The position numbers were made by a program, and so were the translations under genes. A stretch of DNA of 27,934 bases, taken from the UHGV virus genome UHGV-0188207. One strand, 5' to 3'. Positions 3,660-27,934 of the stretch are shown here, one piece after another (within the stretch, counting starts at the first letter, position 1; each line of letters starts with the position of its first letter). Under the pieces are notes generated by a model. That model was not told the DNA's origin and did not search any database. It saw only the letters and a program-made list of their open reading frames with translations. The DNA is from a virus.

Positions 3660-3662
3660 AAG

Positions 3663-4295: not shown

Positions 4296-4306
4296 AATCA
4301 AACCTC

Positions 4307-4335
4307 TTGACGTATATAAAAAGTGATCTTAATAT
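4307..4335 (+). promoter_or_regulatory. Candidate early lytic promoter (pR-like): TTGACG-17 bp-TAATAT
   Basis: -35 TTGACG at 4307-4312 and -10 TAATAT at 4330-4335, upstream of the Apl-like gene and overlapping the cI translation start; AAACC-rich repeats follow at 4360-4405. Confidence 0.45.
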
Positions 4336-4411
4336 CCATTCATGGTTTGAAAAGCAAAACCAAACCACATAAAACAAGATAAAACGAAACCAAACTAAGA
4401 GATACTGCACT

Positions 4412-4654
4412 ATGAGTACTGATATTTCAATTCGAGTACCAAAAGAGATGGCAACGCCTGCTGAGTTCGCTGAATGGGAAGGTATCTCCCGCGGCTCTGT
4501 GTATCAAAAAATTCACCATGGTCAGCTTGCTAAATACATGGTCAAGAAGGAAAAAAACAAAGGCCGCGTAAGCCTGCGTTATTTAATGTACAAAACCGAT
4601 CAGGTCCGTGAATCCCTCGGTCATTCCAACTTCCGCGTCATTGTTGGTAAGTAA
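4412..4654 (+). CDS. Apl/Cox-like excisionase/transcriptional regulator (first gene of the early lytic operon)
   Basis: 80-aa ORF divergent from cI with HTH-like segment EWEGISRGSVYQKIHHGQL; position equivalent to 186 apl / P2 cox. Confidence 0.55.
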   Translation: MSTDISIRVPKEMATPAEFAEWEGISRGSVYQKIHHGQLAKYMVKKEKNKGRVSLRYLMYKTDQVRESLGHSNFRVIVGK

Positions 4655-4686
4655 GTTCAATTATGAGAACTTTCTAAGGGGGTAGC

Positions 4687-5196
4687 ATGTTTGATTATAA
4701 GATTTCCAAACACCCGCATTTTGATGAAGCCTGTAGAGCTTTTGCACTTCGTCACAATATGGCGAAGCTGGCAGAACGTGCAGGAATGAATGTCCAGACA
4801 CTGCGAAACAAACTCAACCCAGATCAACCGCATCAGCTCAATGCGCCAGAAATCTGGCTGCTTACCGATCTGACTGAAGATTCAACGCTGATAGATGGTT
4901 TTCTGGCACAGATTCACTGCCTACCATGTGTACCGATTAATGAGGTGGCAAAAGAGAAGCTGCCGCATTACGTCATGAGTGCAACTGCAGAGATAGGGCG
5001 TGTCGCGGCAGGTGCGGTTTCTGGCGATGTAAAAACCAGTGCAGGCCGTCGTGATGCGATCAGCAGCATTAACTCTGTTACACGACTGATGGCGCTGGCT
5101 GCTGTTTCATTGCAGGCCCGTTTACAGGCTAATCCTGCGATGGCGAGTGCGGTTGATACCGTGACTGGCCTCGGTGCTTCATTCGGTTTGCTGTGA
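4687..5196 (+). CDS. cII: CII-like regulatory protein (186 CII family)
   Basis: 169-aa ORF (the size I recall for 186 CII) directly after the apl-like gene; N-terminal HTH-like region. Confidence 0.6.
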   Translation: MFDYKISKHPHFDEACRAFALRHNMAKLAERAGMNVQTLRNKLNPDQPHQLNAPEIWLLTDLTEDSTLIDGFLAQIHCLPCVPINEVAKEKLPHYVMSATAEIGRVAAGAVSGDVKTSAGRRDAISSINSVTRLMALAAVSLQARLQANPAMASAVDTVTGLGASFGLL

Positions 5197-5203
5197 GGTG
5201 CTT

Positions 5204-5500
5204 ATGCTGACGAAAGAACCATCATTTGCATCGCTGCTGGTAAAACAAAGCCCGGCAATGCACTACGGTCACGGCTGGATCATGGGTGAGGATGGTAAAC
5301 GCTGGCATCCGTGCCGTTCACAAGATGAATTGCTGTCTGAATTGACCACGAGGAAACGGAGAAAGTCCAAATGTATGCGGCAGAAAATGAAGTGGTTTAT
5401 CACTTTCGTTACAGAGGGGAGAATTATTCAGTACCTGAAGATGATTTGCTCAGTTGCTATCCGTCGTTGTCGGGCGATGGTAGCTACTTTTTCACGCTAA
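5204..5500 (+). CDS. Hypothetical early protein (possibly Fil-like); 3' part overlaps the next ORF in another frame
   Basis: GAGGTG RBS 6 bp before the ATG at 5204; N-terminal 57 aa look protein-like (MLTKEPSFASLLVKQSPAMHYGHGWIMGEDGKRWHPCRSQDELLSELT), the tail is compositionally odd. Confidence 0.35.
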   Translation: MLTKEPSFASLLVKQSPAMHYGHGWIMGEDGKRWHPCRSQDELLSELTTRKRRKSKCMRQKMKWFITFVTEGRIIQYLKMICSVAIRRCRAMVATFSR

Positions 5501-5595
5501 AGGATGGAACCTTTATACGTGGTGAAAAAGTACAAGAAGTGATGCGTATAAAGACATCACCTCTTGAACGTTATCGGCGAAATATTTATCGGTAA
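5371..5595 (+). CDS. Hypothetical early phage protein
   Basis: 74-aa ORF MYAAENEVVYHFRYRGENYSVPEDDLL... with a GGAGA RBS; protein-like composition. Confidence 0.5.
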   Translation: MYAAENEVVYHFRYRGENYSVPEDDLLSCYPSLSGDGSYFFTLKDGTFIRGEKVQEVMRIKTSPLERYRRNIYR

Positions 5596-5834
5596 CGATC
5601 TATCAGTGTCTGTATCAGATGAGTGAATTCTTGTTGTTTAACCGAACCTAAAGGAAGTTTGTTTAATTCTTCGCGGAGGAGCTCAAAAAATGCTGATTGA
5701 TTTGCTGAGTCAGTTCGAAATAAGGAGTGGATCAGACCTGAAACAAGAATTCGTTGAACAGCAACCTCATCGCGAAGACTGGAGATCTCGTTTTCAAGTT
5801 GCTCTATACGCTCTCTTTCAACCGGGTTCAACAT
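5586..5834 (-). CDS. Hypothetical small helical protein encoded antisense to the early operon
   Basis: 82-aa ORF MLNPVERERIEQLENEISSLRDEVAVQRILVSGL... with an AGGAA RBS 5 bp upstream of the ATG; convergent 10-bp overlap with the preceding plus-strand ORF. Confidence 0.45.
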   Translation of the reverse strand: MLNPVERERIEQLENEISSLRDEVAVQRILVSGLIHSLFRTDSANQSAFFELLREELNKLPLGSVKQQEFTHLIQTLIDRYR

Positions 5835-5916
5835 TGATGATTCCTTCTAGCTATCAATATGTTGGTAATGGATCATATCAAAAATTTTTTAGTAGATGTG
5901 TTGTGGGGATGCATAA

Positions 5917-6258
5917 ATGGCTATTGAAAGCGCTGCGGCGACTGTTCCATTAAGCCCCGGTGAACGCCTGAATGGACTTAATCACATTGCGGAGTTAAGG
6001 GCGAAAGTATTTGGCCTGAATATTGAGTCAGAGCTTGAGCGGTTTATTAAAGATATGCGTGATCCACGGGATATCAATAACGAACAAAATAAACGGGCAC
6101 TGGCTGCTATATTCTTTATGGCAAAAATTCCAGCTGAACGTCATAGCATCAGCATTAATGAGCTGACCACTGACGAAAAGCGGGAGTTGATTAAAGCAAT
6201 GAATCATTTTCGTGCAGTGGTGAGCTTATTTCCCAGACGGCTAACCATGCCGAATTAA
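5917..6258 (+). CDS. Hypothetical early protein
   Basis: 113-aa ORF in the early operon; no recognisable motif. Confidence 0.5.
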   Translation: MAIESAAATVPLSPGERLNGLNHIAELRAKVFGLNIESELERFIKDMRDPRDINNEQNKRALAAIFFMAKIPAERHSISINELTTDEKRELIKAMNHFRAVVSLFPRRLTMPN

Positions 6259-6325
6259 CCAACTAATGAAATTAATGGCGTAAACCCGCCGGGTATCCCT
6301 TTATCTAAATTCAGGAGAATTGATT

Positions 6326-6559
6326 ATGCGTAATATTGAAACCCTCACGACTAAAACCGGACCGGATGATGCTGGGCTTAATATTTTACTGACAGAGGCT
6401 CGTCTGGAAGAACGCCGGGCAAGGGCTGAAGCAATGGCAGCTCGCCTTGATAGCCTGGCGTGTCATATCACATCCCGCCAGCTAAACCACGTCGAAGCAG
6501 CAGAACTACTGCGTGTAACTGCTGAAGCAATCCAGAACGAAGCGCAGGAGATCCACTAA
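6326..6559 (+). CDS. Hypothetical early protein
   Basis: ORF MRNIETLTTKTGPDDAGLNILL... with an AGGAGA RBS; its stop overlaps the next start (TAATG). Confidence 0.5.
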   Translation: MRNIETLTTKTGPDDAGLNILLTEARLEERRARAEAMAARLDSLACHITSRQLNHVEAAELLRVTAEAIQNEAQEIH

Positions 6560-6786
6560 TGGCTGATGCAATGGATCTCGTACAGCAGCGCGTTGAAGAA
6601 GAACGTCAGCGCCATATCCGTGCTGCCCGTGCCAAAACGCCGGGCGTGTCCCGCGTGCTTTGCATTGAGTGTGAAGCGCCAATTCCGCCAGCACGCCGCC
6701 GCGCCATTCCAGGTGTGCAGCTTTGCATTACCTGTCAGGAAATCGCAGAGCTGAAAGGCAAACATTACAACGGAGGTGCTGTATGA
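6559..6786 (+). CDS. TraR/DksA-family C4 zinc-finger protein
   Basis: 75-aa ORF with CIECEAPIP...CITCQ four-cysteine motif, as in small TraR/DksA-like proteins of P2-like phages. Confidence 0.7.
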   Translation: MADAMDLVQQRVEEERQRHIRAARAKTPGVSRVLCIECEAPIPPARRRAIPGVQLCITCQEIAELKGKHYNGGAV

Positions 6787-7640
6787 GCACCATCCTGAAA
6801 TGGGCGGGAAATAAAACCGCCATTATGTCCGAACTGAAAAAACACCTTCCTGCTGGCCCGCGACTGGTTGAACCTTTCGCGGGTTCCTGTGCTGTGATGA
6901 TGGAGACGGATTACCCCAGCTATCTGGTTGCGGATATTAATCCTGATTTAATCAACCTCTATAAAAAGGTTGCCGCTGATTGTGAATCGTTTATATCTCG
7001 CGCCAGAGTTTTATTTGAGATCGCAAACAGGGAGGTGGCTTATTACAACATAAGGCAGGAGTTTAATTACTCCACTGAAATTACTGATTTCATGAAAGCG
7101 GTATATTTCCTGTATCTCAATCGTCATGGTTACCGTGGATTATGTCGCTATAACAAGAGCGGGCATTTCAACATTCCGTACGGTAATTATAAAAATCCGT
7201 ATTTCCCTGAAAAGGAAATTCGCGCATTTGCAGAGAAAGCCCAGCGTGCAACGTTTATCTGCGCAAGCTTTGATGAAACGCTGGCGATGCTGCAGGTGGG
7301 GGATGTGGTGTATTGCGATCCGCCGTATGACGGTACGTTTTCCGGCTATCACACTGATGGTTTCACTGAAGATGACCAGTATCACCTGGCATCCGTTCTT
7401 GAACATCGGTCATCAGAAGGACATCCGGTCATTGTTTCTAACAGTGATACATCCCTGATCCGTTCGCTGTATCGCAATTTTACTCACCACTACATCAAGG
7501 CAAAACGCAGCATCGGTGTAGCAGCTGGTGAGAGTAAATCTGCAACAGAAATCATCGCTGTTTCCGGGCCGCGCTGCTGGGTGGGATTTGATCCTTCGCG
7601 TGGCGTGGATAGTTCTGCCGTGTACGGAGTGCGTGCATGA
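6783..7640 (+). CDS. dam: DNA adenine methyltransferase (Dam-like, D12 class)
   Basis: [18 protein letters not shown]...FAGSCAV...[11 protein letters not shown] (DPPY catalytic motif and FxGxG AdoMet motif); ATGA-coupled to flanking genes. Confidence 0.8.
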
Positions 7641-10051
7641 GCCATGCTGATATGAACAACTGCAGCGGCTTTAACGAGGTCGCCGCAGCATTCTCATGGA
7701 ACAGCCCGAAAAAGGCCATTAACCCTTATCTGGACCCGGCGGAAGTTGCGCCGGTTTCTGCGCTTTCAAACCTGATCACTCTGTACGCTACTGATAACGA
7801 GCAGGAACAACTGCGCCGCGAGGCACTGAGTGATCAGGTCTGGGAGCGTTATTTCTTTAATGAATCCCGTGATCCTGTCCAACGCGAAATGGAGCAGGAT
7901 AAGCTCATTAGCCGGGCAAAGATGGCGCATGAGCAGCAGCGTTTTAATCCGGACATGGTCATTCTGGCCGACGTCAACGCCCAGCCTTCCCATATCAGCA
8001 AGCCGCTGATGCAACGTATTGAATATTTCAGCAGCCTGGGCAGGCCAAAGGCTTATTCCCGCTATTTGCGTGAGACGATTAAGCCATGTCTGGAACGACT
8101 GGAGCATGTACGCGACAGCCAGCTATCTGCATCTTTTCGTTTTATGGCAAGCCATGAAGGGCTGGATGGTCTGCTGATCCTGCCTGAAATGAGTCAGGAT
8201 CAGGTGAAACGCCTGTCTACCCTTGTCGCTGCGCATATGAGCATGTGTCTTGATGCCGCTTGTGGTGATTTGTACGCCTCCGATGATGTTAAGCCAGAAG
8301 AAATCCGCAAGACATGGGAAAAGGTGGCTGCAGAAACCCTGCGACTGGATGTCATACCGCCTGCGTTTGAGCAACTCCGCCGGAAAAGAAACCGCCGCAA
8401 ACCTGTGCCCTATGAACTCATTCCGGGTTCGCTGGCGCGTATGCTGTGCGCCGACTGGTGGTATCGGAAATTATGGAAGATGCGTTGCGAATGGCGGGAA
8501 GAGCAGTTGCGTGCTGTCTGCCTGGTCAGCAAAAAAGCATCTCCCTATGTCAGCTATGAAGCCGTGATGCATAAACGTGAGCAGCGCCGTAAGTCGCTGG
8601 AGTTTTTCCGTTCTCATGAACTGGTGAACGAAGACGGCGACACGCTGAACATGGAGGATGTGGTAAACGCCAGCAGCAGCAACCCGGCGCATCGCCGCAA
8701 TGAGATGATGGCCTGTGTTAAAGGCCTGGAGCTTATCGCGGAAATGCGTGGTGACTGCGCCGTTTTCTACACCATCACCTGTCCGTCACGTTTCCATTCC
8801 ACGCTAAATAACGGCAGGCCAAACCCGACCTGGACCAACGCGACAGTAAGACAAAGCAGCGATTATCTGGTCGGCATGTTTGCTGCATTTCGTAAGGCTA
8901 TGCACAAAGCCGGGTTGCGCTGGTATGGCGTGCGGGTGGCTGAGCCGCATCATGACGGCACAGTTCACTGGCACCTGTTGTGTTTCATGCGTAAAAAAGA
9001 CCGCCGCGCCATTACTGCATTGTTGCGTAAGTTTGCCATCCGTGAAGACCGCGAGGAGCTGGGCAATAACACGGGGCCACGCTTTAAGTCTGAGCTGATA
9101 AACCCGCGCAAAGGAACGCCGACAAGCTACATTGCGAAATATATCAGTAAGAATATTGACGGGCGTGGTCTGGCTGGCGAGATCAGTAAGGAAACGGGTA
9201 AATCCCTGCGTGATAACGCTGAATACGTTAATGCCTGGGCGTCTCTGCATCGTGTTCAGCAATTCCGCTTCTTTGGCATTCCGGGGCGTCAGGCTTACCG
9301 TGAACTGCGATTGCTGGCTGGTCAGGCGGCAAGGCAACAGGGTGACAAAAAAGCAGGTGCGCCGGTACTGGATAACCCGCGCCTTGATGCCATCCTGGCT
9401 GCTGCTGATGCTGGTTGTTTTGCCACCTACATCATGAAGCAGGGCGGCGTACTGGTTCCCCGCAAATATCACCTCATCAGAACCGCTTATGAAATCAACG
9501 AAGAGCCAACCGCCTATGGCGATCACGGTATTCGTATTTATGGCATCTGGTCACCCATTGCAGAGGGCAAGATCTGCACTCATGCAGTGAAGTGGAAAAT
9601 GGTTCGTAAGGCCGTTGACGTTCAGGAGGCGGCAGCCGACCAGGGCGCTTGCGCCCCTTGGACTCGTGGCAATAACTGTCCCCTTGCTGAAAATTTGAAC
9701 CAACAGGAGAAAGATAAATCAGCTGATGGGGACCCCAGAACGGACATTACCCGCATGGATGACAAGGTGTTGCACGATTACCTGCACAGTATGAACAAAA
9801 AGGAGCGCCGGGAATTGGCTGCAAGGTTACGTCTGGTGAAACCGAAACGGCGTAGAGACTACAAACAGCGAATTACAGACCATCAACGACAGCAGCTCGT
9901 CTATGAACTGAAATCCAGAGGATTTGATGGCAGCGAGAAAGAGGTCGATTTACTCCTTCGCGGCGGCAGTATTCCGTCAGGAGCAGGCCTGCGTATCTTC
10001 TATCGGAACCAGCGTTTGCAGGAAGATGATAAGTGGCGGAACCTGTATTAA
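7637..10051 (+). CDS. A: Replication initiation endonuclease gpA (rolling-circle HUH nuclease)
   Basis: 804-aa ORF with the HUH motif [11 protein letters not shown] and the size/position typical of P2/186 gene A. Confidence 0.85.
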
Positions 10052-10144
10052 TTACGCTGGTTAACAATTCGTGCTCTTAATAATATCAGGCATATCAGGC
10101 TGATAAGCGTAAAAAAAACGTTTTACATCAGTAAGATTATTATA

Positions 10145-10164
10145 TACTGTAAATATAAACAGTG
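10145..10164. promoter_or_regulatory. LexA (SOS) box TACTGTAAATATAAACAGTG
   Basis: CTGT-N8-ACAG with an AT-rich spacer, close to consensus TACTGTATATATATACAGTA; overlaps a candidate promoter (TTTACA at 10122-10127) about 40 bp upstream of the ORF at 10206. Confidence 0.65.
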
Positions 10165-10205
10165 CTTATACATACAGTATTGCGTGTGGTGTCATAGGAG
10201 GAAAG

Positions 10206-10394
10206 ATGCAGGACTATTTTTTGGAGTCTTTGAAGCTCCAGCGCATTGATTTTTTTCTTAAGCTTGTAGCGGCTAGTGAGTGCGATGATGAAGAGAAGCG
10301 GCTTGCTATCCAGTGGGTTTCGGAGCTGACCGATGAGTTAATGGCGAAAATCCGTACTCATGAGTACAACCGTTCAATGGATCTCCCCGGTTAG
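10206..10394 (+). CDS. Small hypothetical protein downstream of the LexA box (candidate SOS-induced factor, Tum-like antirepressor position)
   Basis: 62-aa ORF with a strong AGGAGG RBS; the assignment is by position only. Confidence 0.4.
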   Translation: MQDYFLESLKLQRIDFFLKLVAASECDDEEKRLAIQWVSELTDELMAKIRTHEYNRSMDLPG

Positions 10395-10979
10395 GCTTAG
10401 GAACGTTGCTGGCGTTAGGACTTGATTCTGACGCTAGCAAGGTTGATCAACGAGCCATGCGAGGCGTTAGTCATGGGCAAAAAAATAGTAACTTCCAGAT
10501 TTTGCTTCGTGCCAGGTATTGAGTAGTTTTATCGCCAGAGGGGCTGTTAGCGCTCAAACTACTAATGGAGCCACACCTTAGATGAGTGATTTGGCTTAAG
10601 CTATGATTATATAGTTTCGCTGTACGGCGGCCTTGCTTTTTATTGAAGCGACCAGACTGGAACAACGGCGAAAGGAGACTAACGATACGCACCAGTTTTT
10701 TGAAAAGGTACAGTTATCTAGATTGGTTGCCAATTTTCGTTGAAACCTGACATACCATTAGGTCATTGCTTTAGAAAAATTAATACTTGATGTGAGAATT
10801 GCTTCAAAACATCTAGAATTAAAGTTTCTTTACTAGTATGCTTCATCACTTGGTCGTTGGGTTGAGTGCAAAAGCTAAGGCTGATGCCCAGTACGCTATC
10901 CGCATTATTGCCAGAGAACCGATTCGAAACCGGAATCTGGCAGAGCATGGGCGCAAGTGCTGGCTTCCCAACGGCCTCG

Positions 10980-11948
10980 TTATTTATAATATGCTGACTT
11001 CAAAACCACTCGTCTTTCAACCTGCTGTGATAGCATTACAGCGTTAGTCCAATCTTTTGGATACCTTATTTCTTCTATAACACGAATATAAGCACATACT
11101 TTATTTTTTCCCTCTCCTTTGGCATAAGTAACCTCTAGATTATTAAATTTCAATAAGTGCTCTCTTCTTTGGTAAGTAAAACAGCCGTAATCACGGACAT
11201 CAGAAGAAGTAATAGCATGAGTTGAAGGAAACCGAACTAGTAAATTTCTCAAGTAGGGAATAATGTCCAAACTCGTTGCTTTGTTTTCTTCTCTGCGACT
11301 CTTTCTGAACATATGTCTCCAACCCAGCCGTGTAAGCTCGATTTTCCCAAGCACCGGAGATGTGATTTCTTTCTGTTCAGAATAACGTTTTTTAACAAAC
11401 GCTCGCCGATTATTAAGTAGTGAGTTTCTTCTTCTTACATGGATTCCTTTTGCTCCAGTTTCACCTGCACGTACCATGGACATACAGCGAGCCAGGTCAA
11501 ACCGTGTGGCCGGAGTGATTAAGTGATATTCTCCATAAGTTTGGTTTTTAAGGGTAGTGTTTGGATGTATATAGGCCCAAAATGCTTTACGATTAGTTCT
11601 GTCAACCCAAACGACACATATATGGTGAGTTGTCCTTTTGGCTGCTTTTTTTGCGGCCGAATTTAATACAAAACCTTTCTCTAATAAATGACCATAAGTT
11701 GCCCCTGATTTAACTTGCGACAATATAAGCATTCTTTCTTTTGATGCCCATGGATGTTCGAAGGATAATATTAAATCTATTTTTGAATTGTCGTCTTCCC
11801 TGGAACCCCAGTGCCCCTCTCCTCTACAAGCAAGAATGAATTGACTCATTGCATAAGATTCGGCGTCACTGCCGTTAACTGAGTTAAACTGTCTTGTTTC
11901 TAGCACAGTTGGTATTGGTCGTGATGCAAGTAAACTGAAAGATCCCAC
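10980..11948 (-). CDS. Hypothetical protein in the AT-rich accessory region (candidate defence/cargo gene)
   Basis: 322-aa ORF with a GTG start and GGAGA RBS; low GC compared with the phage core; possible nuclease-like D...QxK pattern (KIDLILSFEH...LSQVKSG), which is very weak evidence. Confidence 0.55.
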   Translation of the reverse strand: MGSFSLLASRPIPTVLETRQFNSVNGSDAESYAMSQFILACRGEGHWGSREDDNSKIDLILSFEHPWASKERMLILSQVKSGATYGHLLEKGFVLNSAAKKAAKRTTHHICVVWVDRTNRKAFWAYIHPNTTLKNQTYGEYHLITPATRFDLARCMSMVRAGETGAKGIHVRRRNSLLNNRRAFVKKRYSEQKEITSPVLGKIELTRLGWRHMFRKSRREENKATSLDIIPYLRNLLVRFPSTHAITSSDVRDYGCFTYQRREHLLKFNNLEVTYAKGEGKNKVCAYIRVIEEIRYPKDWTNAVMLSQQVERRVVLKSAYYK

Positions 11949-12021
11949 TTATAGTTCTCTCCAAAAAATTGCATAATCTTGAACGCTAAAAAATAGTATA
12001 CAAACTAAAGTATTTTTTCAT

Positions 12022-12556: not shown

Positions 12557-13471
12557 ATGCCATACCAATTGGTAGAGCTTAGCCCCGTAGCTAACGATCT
12601 TGAACAGTTAGGAACCAAAGAGAAGTTTTGGTTCTATTTCTCCGATGACACTGTAAATTTGCAGTTGTTTAAGTACTCTAGGCCAGGTACTGGCGAGCAT
12701 TGGTCTGAAAAGTGTGCTGCTGAGTTATGTCATTTGCTTAACATTCCACATGCTAGCTATGATTTGGCGCGATACAATGGTCGATTCGGTGTGGTGACTC
12801 AGAATATCATTCCATCTGGTTTCCGGATGGTAATGGGAAATGAAGTGCTTCACAGTTCGACATTCGATTATCCTGGGCCTTTACAAGCCGGGGAAAAGCC
12901 GGTAAGGGTCAGAGAACACACTGTCACAAGGGTATTGGGTTGTTTGGATAGGGAATCTATCAAGCCTCCTCCGAGTGTATATGATCTAACCGGGCTAAAT
13001 GCAGCAGATGTATTTTGTGGATATTTGATGCTCGATGCACTTGTGAGTAATCAAGATCGCCATCATGAAAATTGGGCGATCATGCTTAACAATGAAACTG
13101 GTGAGCAGTTTTTGTGTCCAACATACGATCATGCCGCTAGTTTAGGAAGGGAGATGTTAGATGATGAGCGTAACGAACGGCTTAATACTAAAGATAAAAA
13201 TCGACAAATCCCATGTTTTGTAAGAAAAGCTCGCTCTGAGCTATTCAAAGCAAAAACTGATAAAAAGCCCTTGCTGACCGTTGAAGCATTTCAACATGCA
13301 GTTGAAGGGAGAGTTGCCGCTCGCGACCATTGGTTAGGTAAGTTGAGCGTTTTAACAGAAGATTCCATTACAGATGTGTTTAACCAAGTGCCTTCATCGT
13401 GTATATCCGACAGTGCACGTAGATTTGCAACGTTAATGGTAATGGAAAATCGCAGAAGGTTACTAGAATGA
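12557..13471 (+). CDS. HipA-family (HipT-like) Ser/Thr kinase core lacking the HipA N-terminal subdomain
   Basis: 304-aa ORF with LGTKEKF (cf. HipA GAQEK loop), DALVSNQDRHHENW (catalytic loop, cf. HipA GATDGHAKNF) and CPTYDHAAS (cf. HipA PFYDIIS); AGGGA RBS; motif comparison from memory only. Confidence 0.6.
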   Translation: MPYQLVELSPVANDLEQLGTKEKFWFYFSDDTVNLQLFKYSRPGTGEHWSEKCAAELCHLLNIPHASYDLARYNGRFGVVTQNIIPSGFRMVMGNEVLHSSTFDYPGPLQAGEKPVRVREHTVTRVLGCLDRESIKPPPSVYDLTGLNAADVFCGYLMLDALVSNQDRHHENWAIMLNNETGEQFLCPTYDHAASLGREMLDDERNERLNTKDKNRQIPCFVRKARSELFKAKTDKKPLLTVEAFQHAVEGRVAARDHWLGKLSVLTEDSITDVFNQVPSSCISDSARRFATLMVMENRRRLLE

Positions 13472-14208
13472 CTAATACAAACTCCGTTTACGTCGCATGG
13501 CAGGCACCAGATACCAGAGACTGGCATGTTGTTGGTAACTTGCAAGAGCGCAAATCGGGGTATGTTTTCAGGTATACCAAAGGTGCTCTTAAATCTACTA
13601 AATTTACAAAGTTTAGCGGCATGAGTGATGTTCGTGAAACTTATGTTTCGGAAGAATTGTTTCCTCTTTTTAAAAATCGCCTTTTATCACCGAGACGTCC
13701 AGAGTATCCGAGTTTCATTAAATGGCTTGGATTTGAAGAAGATAAGGTAAATCCTATCGATATTCTTGCTCGCTCGGGAGGCTTACGAAGCACTGATCAG
13801 CTGCAGATTTTCAAAAAAATTGATGTTGATTCTGATGGTAACTTTGAGCATTTTTTCTTCTTACATGGACTTGGTTACTTAAATAGCTTAGCTAATGCTC
13901 GTGTATCTGAATTGAAACCGGGGCAAATTTTGCGTCTTTGCTTGGATCTTCAAAATGAATACGATGGGGATGCTGTTGTCGTTCGTGCAGATAAACCAGC
14001 TGAAATCGTTGGTTACTGCCCTAGGTATTTAAGTAATGATATCAAGAAGATGTTATTGGATGATCCAAAATCAATCACTTTAACGGTCGAAAAGATTAGC
14101 GATGATGCTCCTCATAACTATCGGTTATTATGTAAATTATCAGGAGTACTAAGCCAAGCCTGTCAATCGACGCTGATTCCTCAGGATGAGTTTGAACCTA
14201 TTGAGTAA
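13468..14208 (+). CDS. Protein with C-terminal HIRAN-like domain and an N-terminal region resembling the HipA N-subdomain (HipS-like)
   Basis: 246-aa ORF, ATGA overlap with the kinase gene; C-terminal DGDAVVVRADKPAEIVGYCPRYLSNDIKKML resembles the HIRAN signature; N-terminal FPLFKNRLLSPRRP / NPIDILARSGGLRSTD resemble HipA FNFFDNLLPDSP / FDLLSEIGRDSVG. Confidence 0.5.
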   Translation: MTNTNSVYVAWQAPDTRDWHVVGNLQERKSGYVFRYTKGALKSTKFTKFSGMSDVRETYVSEELFPLFKNRLLSPRRPEYPSFIKWLGFEEDKVNPIDILARSGGLRSTDQLQIFKKIDVDSDGNFEHFFFLHGLGYLNSLANARVSELKPGQILRLCLDLQNEYDGDAVVVRADKPAEIVGYCPRYLSNDIKKMLLDDPKSITLTVEKISDDAPHNYRLLCKLSGVLSQACQSTLIPQDEFEPIE

Positions 14209-15283: not shown

Positions 15284-17046
15284 AAAATCTCCACAATATT
15301 GCTGGTATTGGCGGATTCGCCCTGCAGCGGTTCGTTAAACAGTGCGTGCATCGTTGCCCATGCCAGATCGGCGTGGCTGGCTTCTTCGCTGCGGCTGGCT
15401 TCATAGGTCGGGCGGTTGCCACTGGCGGTGGTGGAGCGACGGATTGCCATAAAGGACTGCGCTATGTCGGTGTGTCCGGCGTCAAACTCCAGACGGCGGT
15501 GGCTGATAATGTCGTAGGCCTTGAGTACCAGGGCGTTTTTAACGTTGGGGTTGTAGACAAACTCCCGGACGGCAGGAAAGAACGCTTTCACGTTCTCGTA
15601 AACCCCGTGACCAACGCCGGTTGAGTCGATGCCGATGTAGGTCACGTTGTACTGCTCGGTCAGTTTTTTGATTGCGTCCGCCTGGGCACGGAAGTCCATC
15701 CCGCGCCACTGGTGACGCTCAAGAATGCGAAACTTACCGCCTGGCACGGCTGGCGGTGCCACCACCACGCATCCGGCGCTGTCGCCGTTCTGCGTACCTT
15801 TTGCCGGGTCATAACCGATCCACACTTCGCGCCAGCCAAATGGGCGCAGGGCCAGAGCATGAAAGTCGGTCCAGACTTCCCAACTGTCCACCATGCACGC
15901 CTGCAGCTCGCTGAGCGGAAACACGGACGCGAGATCGTCCACAAACTCGCACATCAGCAGGTTCTGGTATTCGTCCGGGCTGTACTCCATGCGCAACTGG
16001 TCAAGGTCGAACAGGTTACAGCCGCCGCGCACCGCATCTTCCACGGTGACTATCTGGCGGTATTGCCCGTCGGCGCACAGCTGGCCGGGGGCCAGATTGC
16101 TGTGGGACAGGTCGATGTCCACCTTATCGGCTTTGTTGCGCCCACGGTTGAACAGCGCACCGGACCAGAACGGATAAGCACTATGAGTCAGGCTGGATGG
16201 CGTGGAAAAATAGGTTTGTCGCCATTTCTTGTGAATAGCCATACCGGAAGCCACTTTGCGCAGCTCCTGGAATTTCGGTATCCAGAAATATTCATCCAGA
16301 TACAGGTTGCCGTGATAACTCTGGGCAGTGCGGGCATTGGTGCCGAGGAAGTAAAGCGTGGCCCCGTTAGGAAGCACCATCGGATCGCCTTTCAGCTCCA
16401 CCTCCACTTCTTTGGCGAAGTCGATGATGTACTGCTTAAAGACATGGGCCTGAGCCTTGCTGGCGGAAAGGAAAATCTGGTTACGCCCGGTTAGCAGGGC
16501 GTCAATCAGGGCTTCACGGGCAAAATAGAAGGTCGCGCCGATCTGGCGTGACTTCAGCAGGTTGCGGATGCGGTTGGTTTTTCCGGCTTCCCACCAGTGG
16601 CGCTGGTAGTTGAACATGGAGGAATGGAAGATTTCTTCCAGCTTCTCAATCTGTTCATCGGTGAAAACGTTCTTTTCCGGCTGACGGCGCGGGCCTTTGT
16701 TACGGTTGGCGACGTTAGGGTTTAAGTCGGCTTCGTTGCCGCCATTGTTAAACTTGCCGATCCGCGCGTGGCGTTCCGACTGGCGCGCCAGCAGGTCAAT
16801 CTCTTTGAAATCTTTCCCTTCTTTGTGCTCCTTCATAATGAGCTGGCAGTAGCGTGCGGCGGTGGTGAGCTGCATCTGATCCAGCGGCCCATAGTCACCC
16901 CACTTGTCGCGTTTTTTCCAGCTGTGAACGGTTGAAACTTTCTCTCCCAGCATTTCAGCAATGCGGGCGACGCGGTATCCCTGAAAGTACAGCAGCATGG
17001 CCTGCCGACGGGGATCGAGATCTGCGGGTGTCAGTGTGGTGTTCAT
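15280..17046 (-). CDS. P: Terminase large (ATPase) subunit gpP
   Basis: 588-aa ORF upstream of Q on the same strand, ATGA-coupled; P2 P-like. Confidence 0.85.
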   Translation of the reverse strand: MNTTLTPADLDPRRQAMLLYFQGYRVARIAEMLGEKVSTVHSWKKRDKWGDYGPLDQMQLTTAARYCQLIMKEHKEGKDFKEIDLLARQSERHARIGKFNNGGNEADLNPNVANRNKGPRRQPEKNVFTDEQIEKLEEIFHSSMFNYQRHWWEAGKTNRIRNLLKSRQIGATFYFAREALIDALLTGRNQIFLSASKAQAHVFKQYIIDFAKEVEVELKGDPMVLPNGATLYFLGTNARTAQSYHGNLYLDEYFWIPKFQELRKVASGMAIHKKWRQTYFSTPSSLTHSAYPFWSGALFNRGRNKADKVDIDLSHSNLAPGQLCADGQYRQIVTVEDAVRGGCNLFDLDQLRMEYSPDEYQNLLMCEFVDDLASVFPLSELQACMVDSWEVWTDFHALALRPFGWREVWIGYDPAKGTQNGDSAGCVVVAPPAVPGGKFRILERHQWRGMDFRAQADAIKKLTEQYNVTYIGIDSTGVGHGVYENVKAFFPAVREFVYNPNVKNALVLKAYDIISHRRLEFDAGHTDIAQSFMAIRRSTTASGNRPTYEASRSEEASHADLAWATMHALFNEPLQGESANTSNIVEIF

Positions 17047-22996: not shown

Positions 22997-23000
22997 TCTT

Positions 23001-23018
23001 TGTATCAGCACTGATACA
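23001..23018. promoter_or_regulatory. Late-promoter activator site, perfect dyad TGTATCAGCACTGATACA (TGT-N12-ACA), upstream of gene V
   Basis: 18-bp perfect palindrome centred about 55 bp upstream of the V start codon, in the S-V intergenic region. Confidence 0.55.
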
Positions 23019-23064
23019 AGTTGCAGCACTGCCGCCTTTCTTCCCCTGATGGCAACCTTTCCCT

Positions 23065-23643
23065 ATGAACGCACAATTAACCGAAATCATGCGCCTTATC
23101 ACCAACCTGATCCGCACAGGGGTAGTCACCGAAGTGGACAGGGAAAACTGGCTTTGCCGGGTGAAAACGGGCGAGCTTGAAACCAACTGGATCAGCTGGC
23201 TGACGCTGAGTGCTGGGAATGCCCGCACATGGTGGCGACCATCGGAAGGTGAGCAGGTGGTGCTGCTGAGTCTGGGCGGCAATCTGGAAACCGCCTTTGC
23301 GTTACCCGCCATCTATTCGAATCAGTTCGCGCCACCGTCGACGTCGGCGGACGCCTGCGTGACAGAACATCCTGACGGTGGCTGGTTTGAATACGAACCC
23401 GCCACCGGGCGCTGGTATGTCAGGGGCATCAAATCAATGGTCATTGAGGCCGCTGACAACATCACCATGAAAACCAGTGAGTTTGTACTGGAGGCTGACC
23501 GCACGCGCATTAACAGCGAAGTGGTGATCAATGGTGGCGTTACCCAGGGAGGCGGAGCGATGAGTTCTAACGGGATCGTGGTTGATGCGCATCAGCATAC
23601 TGGCGTCCTGAAAGGCGGCGATACAACCGGAGGCCCGGTATGA
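23065..23643 (+). CDS. V: Baseplate spike/assembly protein gpV
   Basis: 192-aa ORF; P2 V-like, first gene of the tail operon. Confidence 0.8.
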   Translation: MNAQLTEIMRLITNLIRTGVVTEVDRENWLCRVKTGELETNWISWLTLSAGNARTWWRPSEGEQVVLLSLGGNLETAFALPAIYSNQFAPPSTSADACVTEHPDGGWFEYEPATGRWYVRGIKSMVIEAADNITMKTSEFVLEADRTRINSEVVINGGVTQGGGAMSSNGIVVDAHQHTGVLKGGDTTGGPV

Positions 23644-23999
23644 CGCTTTATAGCGGGATGAACAATACCAGCGGCAAAGTCATTACTGATATTGACCATC
23701 TGCGCCAGTCGGTGCGGGACATTCTGCTGACGCCGCAGGGTAGCCGCATTGCTCGTCGTGAATATGGTTCCCTGCTGTCGTCGCTAATAGACCAGCCACA
23801 AAATCCGGCATTACGCCTGCAGGTCATGTCGGCAGTGTATGTGGCGCTGAGTCGCTGGGAGCCACGGATGACGCTGGATTCCATCACCATCAACAGCAAT
23901 TTTGACGGTTCAATGGTGGTGGCGCTGAGCGGGCGGCGTAATAACGGTGTGCCTGTTTCCCTTTCCGTATCAACAGGAGCAGAGAATGGCAGTGATTGA
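23640..23999 (+). CDS. W: Baseplate wedge protein gpW
   Basis: 119-aa ORF, ATGA-coupled to V; P2 W-like. Confidence 0.8.
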   Translation: MTLYSGMNNTSGKVITDIDHLRQSVRDILLTPQGSRIARREYGSLLSSLIDQPQNPALRLQVMSAVYVALSRWEPRMTLDSITINSNFDGSMVVALSGRRNNGVPVSLSVSTGAENGSD

Positions 24000-24894
24000 C
24001 CTTTCGCAGTTGCCTGCGCCGCAGATTGTGGATGTGCCGGACTTTGAGACGCTGCTTGCCGAACGCAAGGCCGAATTTGTGGCGCTTCATCCGAAAGATG
24101 AGCAGGAAGCAGTGATCCGCACGCTGGAACTGGAATCTGAACCCGTCACCAAATTGCTGCAGGAGAACGCTTACCGTGAGTTGCTTCTGCGCCAGCGCAT
24201 TAACGAAGCCGCGCAGGCTGTGATGGTGGCTTACGCGATGGGCAGCGATCTTGACCAGCTCGCTGCCAACTACAACGTGAAACGCCTGACGGTGACGCCT
24301 GCTGATAATGACGCTGTGCCGCCCGTTGCAGCTGTGATGGAAAGCGATGAAGCGTTACGCCTGCGTGTGCCTGCAGCCTTTGAAGGGCTTTCAGTTGCGG
24401 GGCCAACTGCAGCTTATGAATTTCATGCCCGAAGCGCCGACGGTCGGGTGGCGGATGCCAGTGCAACCAGCCCGGCACCTGCAGAGGTGGTGCTGACTGT
24501 CCTTAGCCGCGAAGGCGATGGAACCGCAGAAAAAGACCTGCTGGACGTGGTGGAAAAAGCTCTGAACAGTGAGAACGTCCGCCCGGTGGCTGACCGTCTT
24601 ACGGTTCGCAGCGCAGAAATCATCCCGTATCGCGTGGAAGCCACCATTTTTATCTATCCTGGACCGGAAGCAGAGCCGGTAATGGCAGCGGCAAAAGCCA
24701 GCCTGCAGAAGTACATCGCCAGTCAGACGCGTCTTGGTCGGGATATTCGCCGTAGCGCCATCTTTGCCGCCCTGCATGTTGAGGGTGTGCAGCGTGTGGA
24801 GCTGGCTTCTCCTCTGGCGGCTGTGGTCCTGAACAAAACACAGGCGGCATCATGTACGCAGTGGAGCGTAACCAACGGAGGAACGGATGAATAG
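23986..24894 (+). CDS. J: Baseplate protein gpJ
   Basis: 302-aa ORF from the ATG with a GGAG RBS (MAVIDLSQLPAPQIV...); P2 J-like. Confidence 0.8.
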   Translation: MAVIDLSQLPAPQIVDVPDFETLLAERKAEFVALHPKDEQEAVIRTLELESEPVTKLLQENAYRELLLRQRINEAAQAVMVAYAMGSDLDQLAANYNVKRLTVTPADNDAVPPVAAVMESDEALRLRVPAAFEGLSVAGPTAAYEFHARSADGRVADASATSPAPAEVVLTVLSREGDGTAEKDLLDVVEKALNSENVRPVADRLTVRSAEIIPYRVEATIFIYPGPEAEPVMAAAKASLQKYIASQTRLGRDIRRSAIFAALHVEGVQRVELASPLAAVVLNKTQAASCTQWSVTNGGTDE

Positions 24895-25492
24895 TCTGCT
24901 GCCACCGGGTTCAACACCACTGGAGCGCCGACTGGCGCAAACCTGCAGCGGGATTTCTGATCTGCAGGTGCCGCTTCGTGACTTGTGGAATCCGGCAACC
25001 TGTCCGGTCAGTTTCCTGCCTTATCTCGCCTGGGCGTTCTCTGTGGATCGCTGGGACGAGGGCTGGACAGAAAGCGTCAAGCGCCAGGTGGTGAAGGATG
25101 CTTTTTATATTCATCAGCATAAAGGGACCACCAGTGCCGTGCGGCGGGTGGTGGAGCCGTTCGGCTTTCTGATCCGCATTATTGAGTGGTGGCAGACCGG
25201 AGAGGCACCGGGCACGTTTCGCCTGGATATCGGCGTGCAGGACCAGGGCATCACTGAAGATACCTATCTGGAACTTGAGCGACTGATAAGCGATGCCAAA
25301 CCATGTAGCCGCCACATGATCGGCATGTCCATCAATCTGCAGACCAGCGGCCCGCATTGGGTGGGAGCCGCCAGCTATCTTGGCGAAGAAATCACGATCT
25401 ATCCGTATATCAACGAAACGATTATTTCCGGTGGCACCGCGCATGAAGGCGGGGCGGTCCATGTTATTGACACAATGAGAGTGAATCCATGA
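24887..25492 (+). CDS. I: Baseplate protein gpI
   Basis: 201-aa ORF following J with a GGAGG RBS. Confidence 0.75.
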   Translation: MNSLLPPGSTPLERRLAQTCSGISDLQVPLRDLWNPATCPVSFLPYLAWAFSVDRWDEGWTESVKRQVVKDAFYIHQHKGTTSAVRRVVEPFGFLIRIIEWWQTGEAPGTFRLDIGVQDQGITEDTYLELERLISDAKPCSRHMIGMSINLQTSGPHWVGAASYLGEEITIYPYINETIISGGTAHEGGAVHVIDTMRVNP

Positions 25493-26910
25493 GCACAAAA
25501 TTTTATACCCTGCTGACGGATATTGGCGCGGCGAAACTTGCCAGCGCCGCCGCGCTCGGTGTGCCGCTAAAAATTACCCATATGGCGGTGGGCGATGGCG
25601 GCGGAGTATTGCCAACGCCGGACGCAAAGCAGACGGCACTGGTAAATGAGAAACGCCGGGCTGCGCTGAATATGCTTTATATCGACCCGCAGAACAGCAG
25701 CCAGATTATTGCTGAACAGGTGATCCCTGAAAACGAGGGCGGTTGGTGGATACGTGAAGTGGGCCTGTTTGATGAGTCCGGGGCATTGATTGCCGTGGGC
25801 AACTGCCCGGAAAGCTATAAGCCGCAACTGGCTGAAGGCAGCGGGCGCACCCAGACCGTGCGCATGGTGCTGATTACCAGCAGTACGGACAATATCACCC
25901 TGAAAATCGACCCTGCTGTAGTGCTGGCAACCCGTAAATATGTGGATGATGAAGTCCTGGAATTAAAGCTGTATGTGGATGACCAGATGAGAAACCACAT
26001 TGCCGCACAAGATCCTCATACCCAGTATGCGCAGAAACATAATCCGACATTTACCGGAGAACCAAAAGCGCCGACGCCTGCAGCAGGAAATAACACCACG
26101 CGGATTGCGACCACTGAGTTTGTTCAGGCCGCTATTACTGCTCTGATTAACGGTGCGCCAGCCACGCTGGACACACTGAAAGAAATTGCCGCAGCCATTA
26201 ACAATGACCCGAAATTCAGTACCACCATTAACAATACGCTGGCACTAAAAGCACCGCTGTCGAGTCCGGCACTCACCGGAACGCCAACAGCACCTACTGC
26301 GGCACAGTCGGTCAACAATACACAGATTGCCACTACAGCTTTTGTGAAATCAGCGATTGCAGCAATGGTGGGTTCTGCACCTGCGGCACTGGATACACTG
26401 AACGAACTGGCGGCGGCACTGGGGAATGATCCGAACTTTGCCACGACAATGCTTAATGCGCTGGCAGGTAAACAACCGCTGGACAATACGCTTACCAATT
26501 TGAGTGGAAAGGATGTAGCTGGTCTTCTCGCATACCTTGGTTTGGGAGAAGCAGCGAAACGGGGGGTGGGAACAGGGGAAAATCAGATACCGGACATGGC
26601 TTCTTTTGCCAGTGGTGATGGATGGATGAAATTACCAAACGGTAAAATTCTGCAATATGGTCGAGGTGAGGCTATGCCGAAATTATCGACGCAAACAATG
26701 AGGATTACATTTCCTATCCCTTTCCCTAAAAAAGCGGACTGCGCCATTCTTACCCATTCTGGTGATGGCGGTGCGCATTTAGGCGCTGGGCGAGGGTTCG
26801 TGATGACTGCAGAAGGCCCAACGTTAACCGGCTTTAATTCTGCTTACAGAACGTCATCAACCAGCGACACGGTATCTATGCATTACAGTTGGTGGGCTGT
26901 TGGTGAGTAA
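25489..26910 (+). CDS. H: Tail fibre protein gpH
   Basis: 473-aa ORF with conserved N-terminus MSTKFYTLLTDIGAAKLASAAALGVPLKITHMAVGDGGG..., two internal approx. 55-aa repeats and a divergent C-terminal region. Confidence 0.85.
   Translation: MSTKFYTLLTDIGAAKLASAAALGVPLKITHMAVGDGGGVLPTPDAKQTALVNEKRRAALNMLYIDPQNSSQIIAEQVIPENEGGWWIREVGLFDESGALIAVGNCPESYKPQLAEGSGRTQTVRMVLITSSTDNITLKIDPAVVLATRKYVDDEVLELKLYVDDQMRNHIAAQDPHTQYAQKHNPTFTGEPKAPTPAAGNNTTRIATTEFVQAAITALINGAPATLDTLKEIAAAINNDPKFSTTINNTLALKAPLSSPALTGTPTAPTAAQSVNNTQIATTAFVKSAIAAMVGSAPAALDTLNELAAALGNDPNFATTMLNALAGKQPLDNTLTNLSGKDVAGLLAYLGLGEAAKRGVGTGENQIPDMASFASGDGWMKLPNGKILQYGRGEAMPKLSTQTMRITFPIPFPKKADCAILTHSGDGGAHLGAGRGFVMTAEGPTLTGFNSAYRTSSTSDTVSMHYSWWAVGE
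26525..26550. promoter_or_regulatory. Candidate DNA-invertase crossover site (hix/gix-like 26-bp imperfect palindrome) inside gene H
   Basis: TTCTCGCATACC-TT-GGTTTGGGAGAA; half-sites match each other at 10/12 positions and resemble the hix/gix core (AAACC..GGTTT) as I recall it. Confidence 0.35.
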
Positions 26911-26930
26911 TTTTATTCAGGGTGATTTAT

Positions 26931-27374
26931 ATGAACGAATATGTTTATAGTGCCAGGCATAATGCTTTTTTCCCTGTGAATATGATTGATAAATATAAAT
27001 CAGTAGGATGGGATTTATCAGATGCTAAGGAGGTGAATCAAAATATTGTCAGTGAGTTTATGGCTGAACCGCCACAAGGAAAAGTCCGTATTACCGGAGA
27101 GGATGGACTACCTATGTGGGCAGATATTCCTCCACCTACTCATGAAGAGCTTATTGAAATTACTGAATCAGAAAGACAGCTACTAATTAACCAGGCCAAC
27201 GAATACATGAACAGTAAGCAATGGCCCGGTAAAGCCGCTATTGGTCGTCTGAAAGGTGATGAACTGGCGCAATATAATTTGTGGCTGGATTATCTGGACG
27301 CACTGGAGCTGGTCGATACTTCCGGTGCGCCAGATATTGAATGGCCTACGCCTCCGGCAGTTCAGGCCAGATGA
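26931..27374 (+). CDS. G: Tail fibre assembly chaperone gpG (Tfa)
   Basis: ORF MNEYVYSARHNAFFP... with C-terminus LVDTSGAPDIEWPTPP typical of Tfa proteins. Confidence 0.75.
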   Translation: MNEYVYSARHNAFFPVNMIDKYKSVGWDLSDAKEVNQNIVSEFMAEPPQGKVRITGEDGLPMWADIPPPTHEELIEITESERQLLINQANEYMNSKQWPGKAAIGRLKGDELAQYNLWLDYLDALELVDTSGAPDIEWPTPPAVQAR

Positions 27375-27934
27375 CATCCGGCGCTGTGCTGGTATCTGTT
27401 GCCGTCACCGCGTCAATGTAATCCAGCACAGCGTTAAGGCGGGTTGTTTCTGCCTGCGTCAGCTTCCGTCCGGCCTGTAATTTCAGTTGAATCAGACTGA
27501 TGGAGGCCATTGCAGTATCAATCAGCGACTGTCGCTGTGCTTCTGCTGCATCTACTGCTGCGCCGTGCTGTGCCTCGGTATCTGTCACCCATTTCTCACC
27601 ATTCCATTCATCGTATGGCGTTAACGGGGCGATAGTGGTTGTATTTTCAGGATAATCACCCGGAGCTGTGATTTCTTTCGATTCTCCTGTTTCGATGCTA
27701 TAGACGATTTCACCGCGATGATCTGGCACATATTCCCATGAATTTAAATTCACAGAACGACAGATTGCATAACCAACCTTATGTATGCCTGGTGCATCAA
27801 GACAGGAACATGCCGGAATACCGACACCAACAGCAAGATATTCAGTTGACGTGGAAATATATTCCCGTGTTTCACCATCGTAGTTATAAACGGTAACATC
27901 CCCTGCCTTTGTTGCAATAAGGTCACTATTTAAT
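27346..27934 (-). CDS. Second tail fibre assembly protein (Tfa') in inverted orientation; 5' end runs off the window
   Basis: Minus-strand frame is open from the window edge: ...YNYDGETREYISTSTEYLAVGVGIPACSCLDAPGIHKVGYAICRS-NLNSWEYVPDHRGEIVYS...DTSTAPDVIWPELPEA, resembling lambda-type Tfa; the in-window start of the track ORF (27753) is probably not the true start. Confidence 0.65.
   Translation of the reverse strand, partial: LNSDLIATKAGDVTVYNYDGETREYISTSTEYLAVGVGIPACSCLDAPGIHKVGYAICRSVNLNSWEYVPDHRGEIVYSIETGESKEITAPGDYPENTTTIAPLTPYDEWNGEKWVTDTEAQHGAAVDAAEAQRQSLIDTAMASISLIQLKLQAGRKLTQAETTRLNAVLDYIDAVTATDTSTAPDVIWPELPEA

Follow-up and report, generated by a model that had tools for sequence, protein, structure and literature searches.

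Left part of a probable Din-family inversion switch in the tail-fibre gene H of a P2-like Escherichia coli prophage

The 3' end of the window (the whole 27,934-nucleotide stretch analysed here, virus genome UHGV-0188207) very probably holds one side, the left, of an inversion switch of the Din family (Pin/Gin/Cin/Hin-type) lying in the tail-fibre gene H. The system is real but ordinary: how it works is established, e14, Mu and P1 are its known paradigms, and P2-like prophages are already known to carry it. The window contains the left two-thirds of the switch and falls about 500 bp short of where the second site is expected. The DNA further downstream was read from near-identical relatives, recovered by exact look-up of the G protein. 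Features located in the window are collected in Table 1.

Table 1. Features of the putative switch in the window
Feature	Position	Strand	Basis
H, tail-fibre gene, 473 aa	25489-26910	+	ORF list, Pfam, synteny
Hc, constant part of H, outside the invertible segment	25489-26536	+	alignment to L007
Left 26-bp crossover site	26525-26550	none	pattern match, breakpoint role
Invertible segment, left 1397 bp	26538-27934	none	opposite orientation in L007, L005, L113
Hv, variable tip of H, expressed orientation in the window	26539-26910	+	Gp53-like_C domain
G (Tfa), chaperone of the gp53-like tip, 147 aa from ATG	26931-27374	+	Caudo_TAP, E=6e-29
Tfa', alternative chaperone	27346-27934, runs off the window end	-	Caudo_TAP, E=2e-31

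A crossover site inside gene H

At its 3' end, the window runs into the tail module of a P2-like prophage of E. coli (Peduoviridae). We tested the P2-like tail order, V-W-J-I-H-G followed by FI/FII/E/T/U/D. Synteny comparison gave the order V-W-J-I-H-G, as in P2-like prophages, and Pfam searches of a contig 100% identical to the window (L003) returned Phage_base_V, GPW_gp25, Baseplate_J, Tail_P2_I, Phage_tail_fib and Caudo_TAP. Downstream, L109 and L110 carry genes for the sheath, the tube, the tape measure, GpU and GPD, while GPA and an integrase are encoded upstream, within the window. The host element is apparently a complete P2-like prophage and not a lambdoid remnant. In its present state, H is made of a constant N-terminal part and a gp53-like C-terminal tip, with Pfam matches to Phage_tail_fib at residues 1-150 (E=6e-65) and to Gp53-like_C at residues 381-472 (E=4e-12).

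The first-pass annotation had noticed a 26-bp imperfect palindrome in H, ahead of its divergent C-terminal region. The palindrome was confirmed, and it lies at the point where similarity to the H genes of other phages switches. Its sequence, TTCTCGCATACCTTGGTTTGGGAGAA, can be written TTCTCGCATACC-TT-GGTTTGGGAGAA, that is, two imperfectly symmetric 12-bp half-sites (10 of 12 positions symmetric) around a 2-bp core at 26537-26538, as in Din-family sites; within H it codes for the peptide LLAYLGLGE. It fits the invertase-site pattern with one mismatch, on the minus strand, and no equally good match appeared in 100 dinucleotide-preserving shuffles. A chance palindrome was ruled out by these shuffles and by the fact that the site is an exact alignment breakpoint. 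Of the 26 positions of the site, 23 agree with the left-hand e14 P-segment site as given in the K-12 record, and the AAACC-NN-GGTTT centre is also present in the gix sites that mark the annotated boundaries of the G segment in Mu. Pattern and repeat searches found no second inverted site within the window, which ends too early.

The breakpoint was seen with the prophage L007, which is 96-97% identical to the window and flipped exactly at the site. Window positions 23000-26551, including the constant part of H, align to it on the plus strand and positions 26534-27934 on the minus strand. Among phage sequences similar to H, the similarity likewise switches exactly at the 26-bp site, many records covering 25489-26551 only and others 26521-27934 only. 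A 40-mer taken from Hc was used to scan IMG/VR, and 100 loci were returned. Many of them join a window-type H to other cassettes (the constant part being 99.7-99.9% identical in such loci) or end at the site; 15 of 91 IMG/VR loci end inside it or at most 1 nt from its end. None of the 100 loci joins the H of the window to the segment of the window at more than 94% identity. Exact look-up of the H protein returned only two contigs, both 100% identical and ending at most 7 nt from the window end. Contigs of 100% identity are present in the ENA assemblies ERZ28598765 and ERZ27263560.

Two convergent cassettes in both orientations

Downstream of the variable tip, the segment carries the chaperone gene G, for which gene callers choose the ATG as start although an in-frame GTG is present at 26922. 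A second Tfa gene on the opposite strand, overlapping G at the 3' ends and related to it at the C-terminus, had been described from the sequence alone, and all of this holds. G and Tfa' are convergent, with a 29-bp overlap of their 3' ends; their C-termini read ...GAPDIEWPTPPAVQAR and ...TAPDVIWPELPEA, and BLASTP aligned them with 34% identity over 80 aa (E=3e-11). An inverted repeat at 27327-27384 was considered as a terminator and rejected, as it corresponds to the homologous coding ends of the two Tfa C-termini, facing each other. An earlier reading of Tfa' as a complete gene of 135 aa had to be abandoned: the frame is open through the last base of the window, and the protein is 200 aa long in the relatives. 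Since the start codon falls only about 14 nt past the window end, the alternative chaperone lies almost wholly inside the window (195 of 200 codons). It had been proposed that an alternative tip and chaperone pair was encoded beyond the window; this is right for the fibre tip and wrong for the chaperone. Tfa' is silent in the orientation of the window.

The two closest relatives, L111 and L109, are 99.95% and 99.94% identical to the window, with four substitutions each. They continue with a 200-aa Tfa', a 178-aa tip with a Collar domain, a second site and an invertase gene starting at 9585. The three elements to be sought downstream according to the first-pass annotation, namely an inverted second site, an alternative fibre tip and a serine invertase, were thus all found in these contigs. 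The second site is at 9504-9529 in both L111 and L109, at 9928-9953 in L002 and at 9946-9971 in L001; the latter two are complete genomes, 95% identical, with a matching layout followed by the tail sheath gene FI. The core of the second site reads AA on the plus strand, equivalent to TT when inverted, in agreement with the left core TT. The right site of L002 is identical to the right site of e14, from which that of L111 differs by 1 nt. On a composite of the window and L111 the full segment measures about 1909 bp from core to core. When the segment was flipped in silico, the reading frame was maintained, producing an H' protein with a Collar domain of 509 aa (L002) or 515 aa (window and L111); the 200-aa Tfa' comes next, the two frames overlapping at an ATGA. 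The flipped H' is annotated as an intact gene of 1530 nt in L007 and as a gene of 1500 nt in phage KC618326.

The window ends before the invertase gene. In the relatives, the protein has a Resolvase domain, the active-site serine and a C-terminal helix-turn-helix. It is 188 aa long in L002, L007 and L109 (Pfam Resolvase, E=7e-53; HTH_7, E=1e-15), aligns over its full length to the Gin structures 3UJ3 and 4M6F (E=7.5e-91), and its serine motif GYVRVSTNDQ, with the conserved S9, is aligned with that of Gin. It shares 85.6% of its residues with PinE and 73.5% with the Gin protein of Mu. Inversion presumably requires Fis and an enhancer, expected in the 5' part of the invertase gene; when the first 230 nt of pinE and of the invertase genes of the relatives were scanned for a degenerate Fis motif, one shared match appeared, at nt 71, and no clear pair at the expected spacing.

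The occurrence of both orientations, as expected from the first reading, is now documented in complete E. coli genomes, in sequenced phages and in metagenome contigs near-identical to the segment. The segment is flipped in L007, L005 and L113 (96.9%, 93.1% and 99.8% identity, respectively), where the variable tip lies on the minus strand beside the invertase gene, and unflipped in L001, L002, L006, L110 and the window. A relative of G, WP_021542075.1, is encoded on the plus strand in L002 and on the minus strand in L007. Phage KC618326 is flipped and phage pro483 unflipped. The flipped junction was found in 373 complete E. coli genomes and the window-type junction in 39, each at a coverage of at least 80%. 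The metagenome contigs L113 and L114 contain the recombinant junction at 99.8-99.9% identity. Another metagenome contig, L116 (1911 bp), consists of the segment alone; it is 100% identical to window positions 26537-27934 and its termini, TTGGTTTGGGAGAA...TTCTCCCAAACCAA, end at the crossover core. Segment-only contigs could also arise otherwise, because one segment may sit in two prophages of the same sample. Finally, both junction types are present in the scaffold L109, obtained from one isolate. Its layout with two invertase copies is probably not a true tandem but a result of scaffolding across mixed orientations, given that the join contains an N and that 663 bp recur as an exact inverted copy.

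Proposed mechanism and alternative readings

These data suggest the following scheme. A segment of about 1.9 kb between two inverted 26-bp sites contains two convergent cassettes, the first made of the gp53-like tip and G, the second of the Collar-domain tip and Tfa'. The serine invertase, encoded just past the right-hand site, would pair both sites, cut at their common 2-bp core (TT/AA), rotate the strands and religate them. Since transcription and translation would proceed into the segment from Hc, expression would be limited to whichever cassette faces H: the state of the window would give H(gp53-like) and G, and the flipped state the 515-aa H'(Collar) and Tfa'. As one H-facing cassette would be expressed per state, the particles released by a lysogen population would each bear one of two receptor-binding tips. 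The two tips probably confer different host ranges, and the switch would then represent host-range bet-hedging, a single prophage releasing particles with two receptor-binding tips. For annotation, such a switch would account for the frequent mis-calling or splitting of H and the genes that follow it, for assembly breaks at 26550 or within the segment, and for the "same" prophage showing different fibre genes across genomes.

The copy in the window probably still inverts. We consider it unlikely, although it is the most serious of the alternatives, that the working invertase has been lost and that the switch is frozen in the gp53-like/G state unless the Pin-type invertase of another prophage acts in trans. 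This reading arises because the window ends about 500 bp early and because L111 has a 2.4-kb deletion that truncates its invertase gene near codon 143, FI, FII and E being lost as well. In addition, the left site did not interrupt the assembly of the window, a hint that a single orientation dominated in the sample, and inversion of the e14 segment in trans by PinQ has been reported (PMC12529663). However, in the equally close L109 the 188-aa invertase and the tail genes are all intact, and flipped-state and segment-only contigs exist that are 99.8-100% identical to the segment of the window.

A further role of an active switch, which we judge improbable, would be that the H'(Collar) fusion serves the host as a receptor-masking defence, produced through resident or trans-acting Pin invertases. 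The idea comes by analogy with e14: a 2025 paper reported that inversion of the e14 segment yields a chimeric fibre, StfE2, which blocks adsorption of phage T2. The alternative cassette of the relatives is close to that of e14, with 96% identity to StfE for the tip and 92.5% to TfaE of K-12 for the full-length chaperone of L111 (200 aa).

Alternatively, a past cassette exchange could have left behind both the site and the convergent pair of Tfa genes, in a lineage without current programmed inversion. Exchange does occur at this boundary, as attested by the segment being carried at 99.8% identity by the Mu-like prophage L108 and by the other cassettes joined to the constant part of H in IMG/VR loci. 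A purely static mosaic is nevertheless very improbable: the sequences break at the 2-bp core within the 26-bp site, which matches sites that invert experimentally, an intact Pin-like invertase gene adjoins the segment in relatives, and both junction types are found at more than 99.8% identity, also within the scaffold of one isolate. As for a chimeric assembler join placing G beside an inverted Tfa gene, the window end is indeed repeat-rich, three assemblies breaking at most 7 nt apart in a 118-nt run identical to e14, but the same convergent overlap is found in the finished genomes L001 and L002, in e14 of K-12 (tfaP/tfaE) and in sequenced phages, and the complete genomes refute such an artefact in practice.

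Comparison with known inversion systems

The closest characterised relative of the predicted switch is the P segment of e14 with its invertase PinE in E. coli K-12, whose inversion has been verified experimentally by sequencing and PCR (PMC4272514). The gene order of e14 (stfP/ycfK-tfaP, tfaE-stfE, pinE) is identical to that of the window and its relatives: constant part, site, first tip, first Tfa, convergent second Tfa and tip, second site, invertase. The 3' overlap of tfaP and tfaE, 29 nt, equals that of G and Tfa'. The two systems differ in their host element and constant part, e14 being a lambdoid remnant whereas here the host is a P2-like prophage and the constant part that of a P2 H protein (Phage_tail_fib). 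They also differ in the first cassette, with only 26% identity between the gp53-like tip and StfP and 54% between G and TfaP.

A likeness to the G segment of phage Mu had also been pointed out, and reading of the Mu record (Sc, Sv-U, U'-S'v, gin) bears out the architecture. The 5' constant part of the fibre gene is outside the segment, as in the window; opposed cassettes of tip and chaperone are inside, 26-bp sites form the boundaries and the invertase gene is just outside. In contrast, the segment of Mu spans about 3 kb instead of 1.9 kb, its gix sites (TTATCCAAAACCTCGGTTTACAGGAA and TTCCTGTAAACCGAGGTTTTGGATAA) have other outer positions and another core than the site of the window, its chaperone genes do not overlap, and the phage belongs to a different family. 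The C segment of P1 with Cin and the Salmonella Hin/hix flagellar switch use the same recombinase family and the same 26-bp site design, but Hin flips a promoter and not coding cassettes.

Within P2-like phages, Fels-2 of Salmonella, with Fin, has an invertible tail-fibre locus of this type. The phages pro483 (KR073661) and KC618326 (a P2-like phage of E. coli O157:H43 T22) belong to the same family as the window, and their locus is likewise situated between H and FI. Their segments are homologous to that of the window (89-93%), lie in opposite orientations to each other and are accompanied by an annotated DNA invertase, although the constant part of their H is merely 68-72% identical. In P2-like prophages of the EPEC strain E2348/69, inversion and phase variation of the locus have been shown by whole-genome sequencing and PCR (PMC4272514). 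One of these EPEC loci has extra sites that allow four variants, whereas two sites are found in the relatives of the window.

Gene content and crossover site at the right end of the window

A P2-like tail module makes up the final 5 kb of the window. Upstream are found an IS3-family transposase gene, followed by a P2-type integrase gene, a Dam methylase gene, replication gene A and head and lysis genes, indicating that the window is one prophage arm on an E. coli contig. The first-pass annotation had described a second, convergent Tfa gene overlapping G and encoding a related C-terminus. This description was borne out: the 3' ends of the two genes overlap by 29 bp, their products end with related peptides (APDIEWP and APDVIWP) and share 34% identity across 80 aa. 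The Tfa' reading frame is open through the last base of the window and the protein is 200 aa long in relatives, which places the start codon about 14 nt beyond the window; a 135-aa ORF was rejected on the same grounds.

Coordinates of features in the window and in related loci
Locus	Position	Strand	Feature	Remarks
Window	1-1392		IS3-family transposase	Repeat at left end
Window	10980-11948	-	ORF adjoining PDC-M03
Window	12557-14208	+	PDC-M03	Candidate two-gene anti-phage system
Window	23065-25492		V, W, J, I	Baseplate genes
Window	25489-26910		H	473 aa; Phage_tail_fib N-terminus, Gp53-like_C tip
Window	26525-26550		Crossover site	TTCTCGCATACC-TT-GGTTTGGGAGAA
Window	26931-27374		G	Caudo_TAP chaperone
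Window	from 27346	opposite to G	Tfa'	Second Caudo_TAP gene
L108	7318-10152		Segment in Mu-like prophage	99.8% identical to window
L110 (sister prophage)	2081-3856	-	GmrSD_N-domain gene	Inserted between tail genes S and V
L111 (sister prophage)	15435-16208	+	Reverse-transcriptase (RVT_1) gene	After ogr

PDC-M03 is located in the P2 cargo hotspot, which is flanked by replication gene A and portal gene Q. Its protein A was detected by PADLOC (E=2e-122) with a weak Pfam match to HipA_C, and its protein B (E=3e-93) carries a HIRAN domain; the adjoining 321-aa ORF had no match in Pfam or PADLOC.

The palindrome noticed earlier within H does resemble invertase sites. Its half-sites are symmetrical at 10 of 12 positions, and it deviates by one mismatch from a crossover-site pattern for which 100 shuffles gave no equally good match. 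This pattern was validated on sequence records: it recovers both boundaries of the experimentally inverting e14 P segment in the K-12 record, as well as both gix sites that bound the annotated G segment of phage Mu. The window site is identical to the e14 left site at 23 of 26 positions. Similarity to other phages switches at the site, many records matching only 25489-26551 and others only 26521-27934.

Second site, alternative cassette and invertase in relatives

An exact look-up of the H protein retrieved two metagenome contigs only, both 100% identical to the window and ending at most 7 nt from its end. Among the loci retrieved in the same way with the G protein are two isolate assemblies, L111 (GCA_048243335.1, 99.95% identical) and L109 (GCA_002207085.1, 99.94%), each differing from the window by four substitutions across 7-8 kb. 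Past the window end, both complete Tfa' and then encode, on the - strand, a Collar-domain fibre segment of 178 aa. Next comes another site (TTCTCCCAAACC-AA-CGTTTAAGAAAA), inverted relative to the first, and a recombinase gene starts 55 nt beyond it. The inverted site, alternative fibre segment and serine invertase expected downstream by the first-pass annotation are all present in these two assemblies, and its interpretation as an invertible tail-fibre switch holds with small corrections. L001 and L002, two complete E. coli genomes with about 95% identity to the window, are organised in the same way, with the tail sheath gene next.

The recombinase of the relatives (188 aa; Resolvase and HTH_7 domains) aligns over its full length to Gin crystal structures (E=7.5e-91), conserves the GYVRVSTNDQ serine motif, and shares 85.6% identity with PinE and 73.5% with Gin. 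The alternative cassette is also near that of e14, with 92.5% identity between Tfa' and TfaE and 96% between the Collar tip and StfE. In RefSeq, H and the silent alternative tip are split or marked as pseudogenes (L001, 7001-8423 and 9727-9999; L002, 7001-8422) and H is labelled 'incomplete' or 'frameshifted', yet H of L002 is an intact 473-aa ORF; this appears to be an artefact of annotation of the kind that is typical for invertible fibre genes.

Evidence for inversion between the site cores

Several independent lines of evidence indicate that segments of this type invert, with breakpoints at the site core. L007, the prophage of E. coli ST130, is collinear with the window over 23000-26551 (+ strand, 95.7%) and inverted over 26534-27934 (- strand, 96.9%), and the switch between the two alignments falls inside the site; the identical G protein WP_021542075.1 lies on opposite strands in L007 and in the unflipped L002. 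The homologous segment has one orientation in the sequenced phage pro483 and the other in the sequenced phage KC618326, and a DNA invertase is annotated in both. With a 600-bp junction probe (coverage at least 80%), the flipped junction, joining the H constant part to the Collar tip, was detected in 373 complete E. coli genomes, some of which may hold another second cassette since L007 alone was inspected in full, and the window-type junction in 39.

Metagenome contigs gave further evidence: L113 (99.8%) reads invertase(-), site, gp53-like tip, G, and L114 (99.9%) runs from the invertase-side flank through a recombinant site, TTTTCTTAAACG-TT-GGTTTGGGAGAA, into the gp53-like tip. L116 (1911 bp) consists of the segment alone, 100% identical to window 26537-27934, and extends from core to core, beginning with TTGGTTTGGGAGAA and ending with TTCTCCCAAACCAA. 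Such segment-only contigs could partly reflect one segment shared by two prophages. Among 91 IMG/VR loci with this H gene, 15 end within the site or at most 1 nt past its last base.

In the single-isolate scaffold L109, H-site-gp53 tip and invertase(-)-site-gp53 tip are both present, joined by one N. Behind this N (position 6958, within 6654-10165), the site and invertase recur in inverted orientation as an exact 663-bp copy, and the gp53-like tip and G then appear a second time. The two junction types are best explained by mixed orientations among the reads of that culture; the contig is recorded in two samples, and three similar places exist beyond the matches listed. Flipping the segment in silico keeps the frame: H' is 509 aa long in L002 and 515 aa long in the composite of the window and L111, where the core-to-core distance is 1909 bp. 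Its C-terminus is a Collar domain, and Tfa' comes next with an ATGA overlap.

In L108, a Mu-like prophage with the baseplate genes Mu Gp45, Gp46 and Gp48, the window's segment follows a fibre constant part that is unlike that of the window and, at 220 aa, much shorter; the outer half of its left site also differs. This indicates that whole switch cassettes pass from one phage family to another at the crossover site. Five IMG/VR loci (L009, L060, L082, L083, L088) have an H constant part 99.7-99.9% identical to that of the window and other variable cassettes at the site; only the Tfa' half of the window segment matches them (88-90%).

State of this copy and comparison with known systems

The window is in the gp53-like/G state, and has no second site and no invertase gene. 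Its right end (27921-27934) falls within 118 nt that match the e14 tfaE/stfE junction exactly, so a repeat is the probable cause of the break; three independent assemblies break there, at most 7 nt apart. Part of window 1-12000 is matched by every E. coli genome. Assembly continued across the left site without a break, which suggests one dominant orientation in that sample.

This copy may be frozen, or dependent on a Pin-type invertase acting in trans, as has been reported for PinQ on e14 (PMC12529663). In L111 a 2.4-kb deletion cuts the invertase off at about codon 143 and takes out the sheath and tube genes as well, whereas in the almost equally close L109 the invertase, sheath and tube genes are intact. 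In L111 (9585-10066), the deletion joins the invertase to DNA upstream of T (tape-measure) at a short microhomology, with loss of FI, FII and E. This prophage would be tail-defective and its switch devoid of invertase, the deletion being either real or an assembly error.

By homology with Gin, Hin and Pin, the invertase would bind both 26-bp sites, cut their matching 2-bp cores (TT at left, AA on the + strand at right), exchange the strands and religate them; Fis and an enhancer in the invertase gene are assumed to be required. A scan for Fis motifs in the first 230 nt of pinE and of the relatives' invertase genes gave a single shared hit, at nt 71, and no clear pair of sites with the expected spacing. 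Late-operon transcription would enter through the H constant part and drive expression, so that only the H-facing cassette would be made. By analogy with Mu and P1, the two tips may confer different host ranges.

The locus is a Din-family invertible tail-fibre segment in a P2-like prophage, an ordinary result for a kind of system already known. Such loci in P2-like E. coli prophages have been shown to phase-vary (PMC4272514), P2-like invertible loci are annotated in sequenced phages, and surveys of programmed inversions recognise tail-fibre genes as a class (PMC9881135). The architecture is shared with the Mu G segment, and the closest known system is the e14 P segment with PinE.
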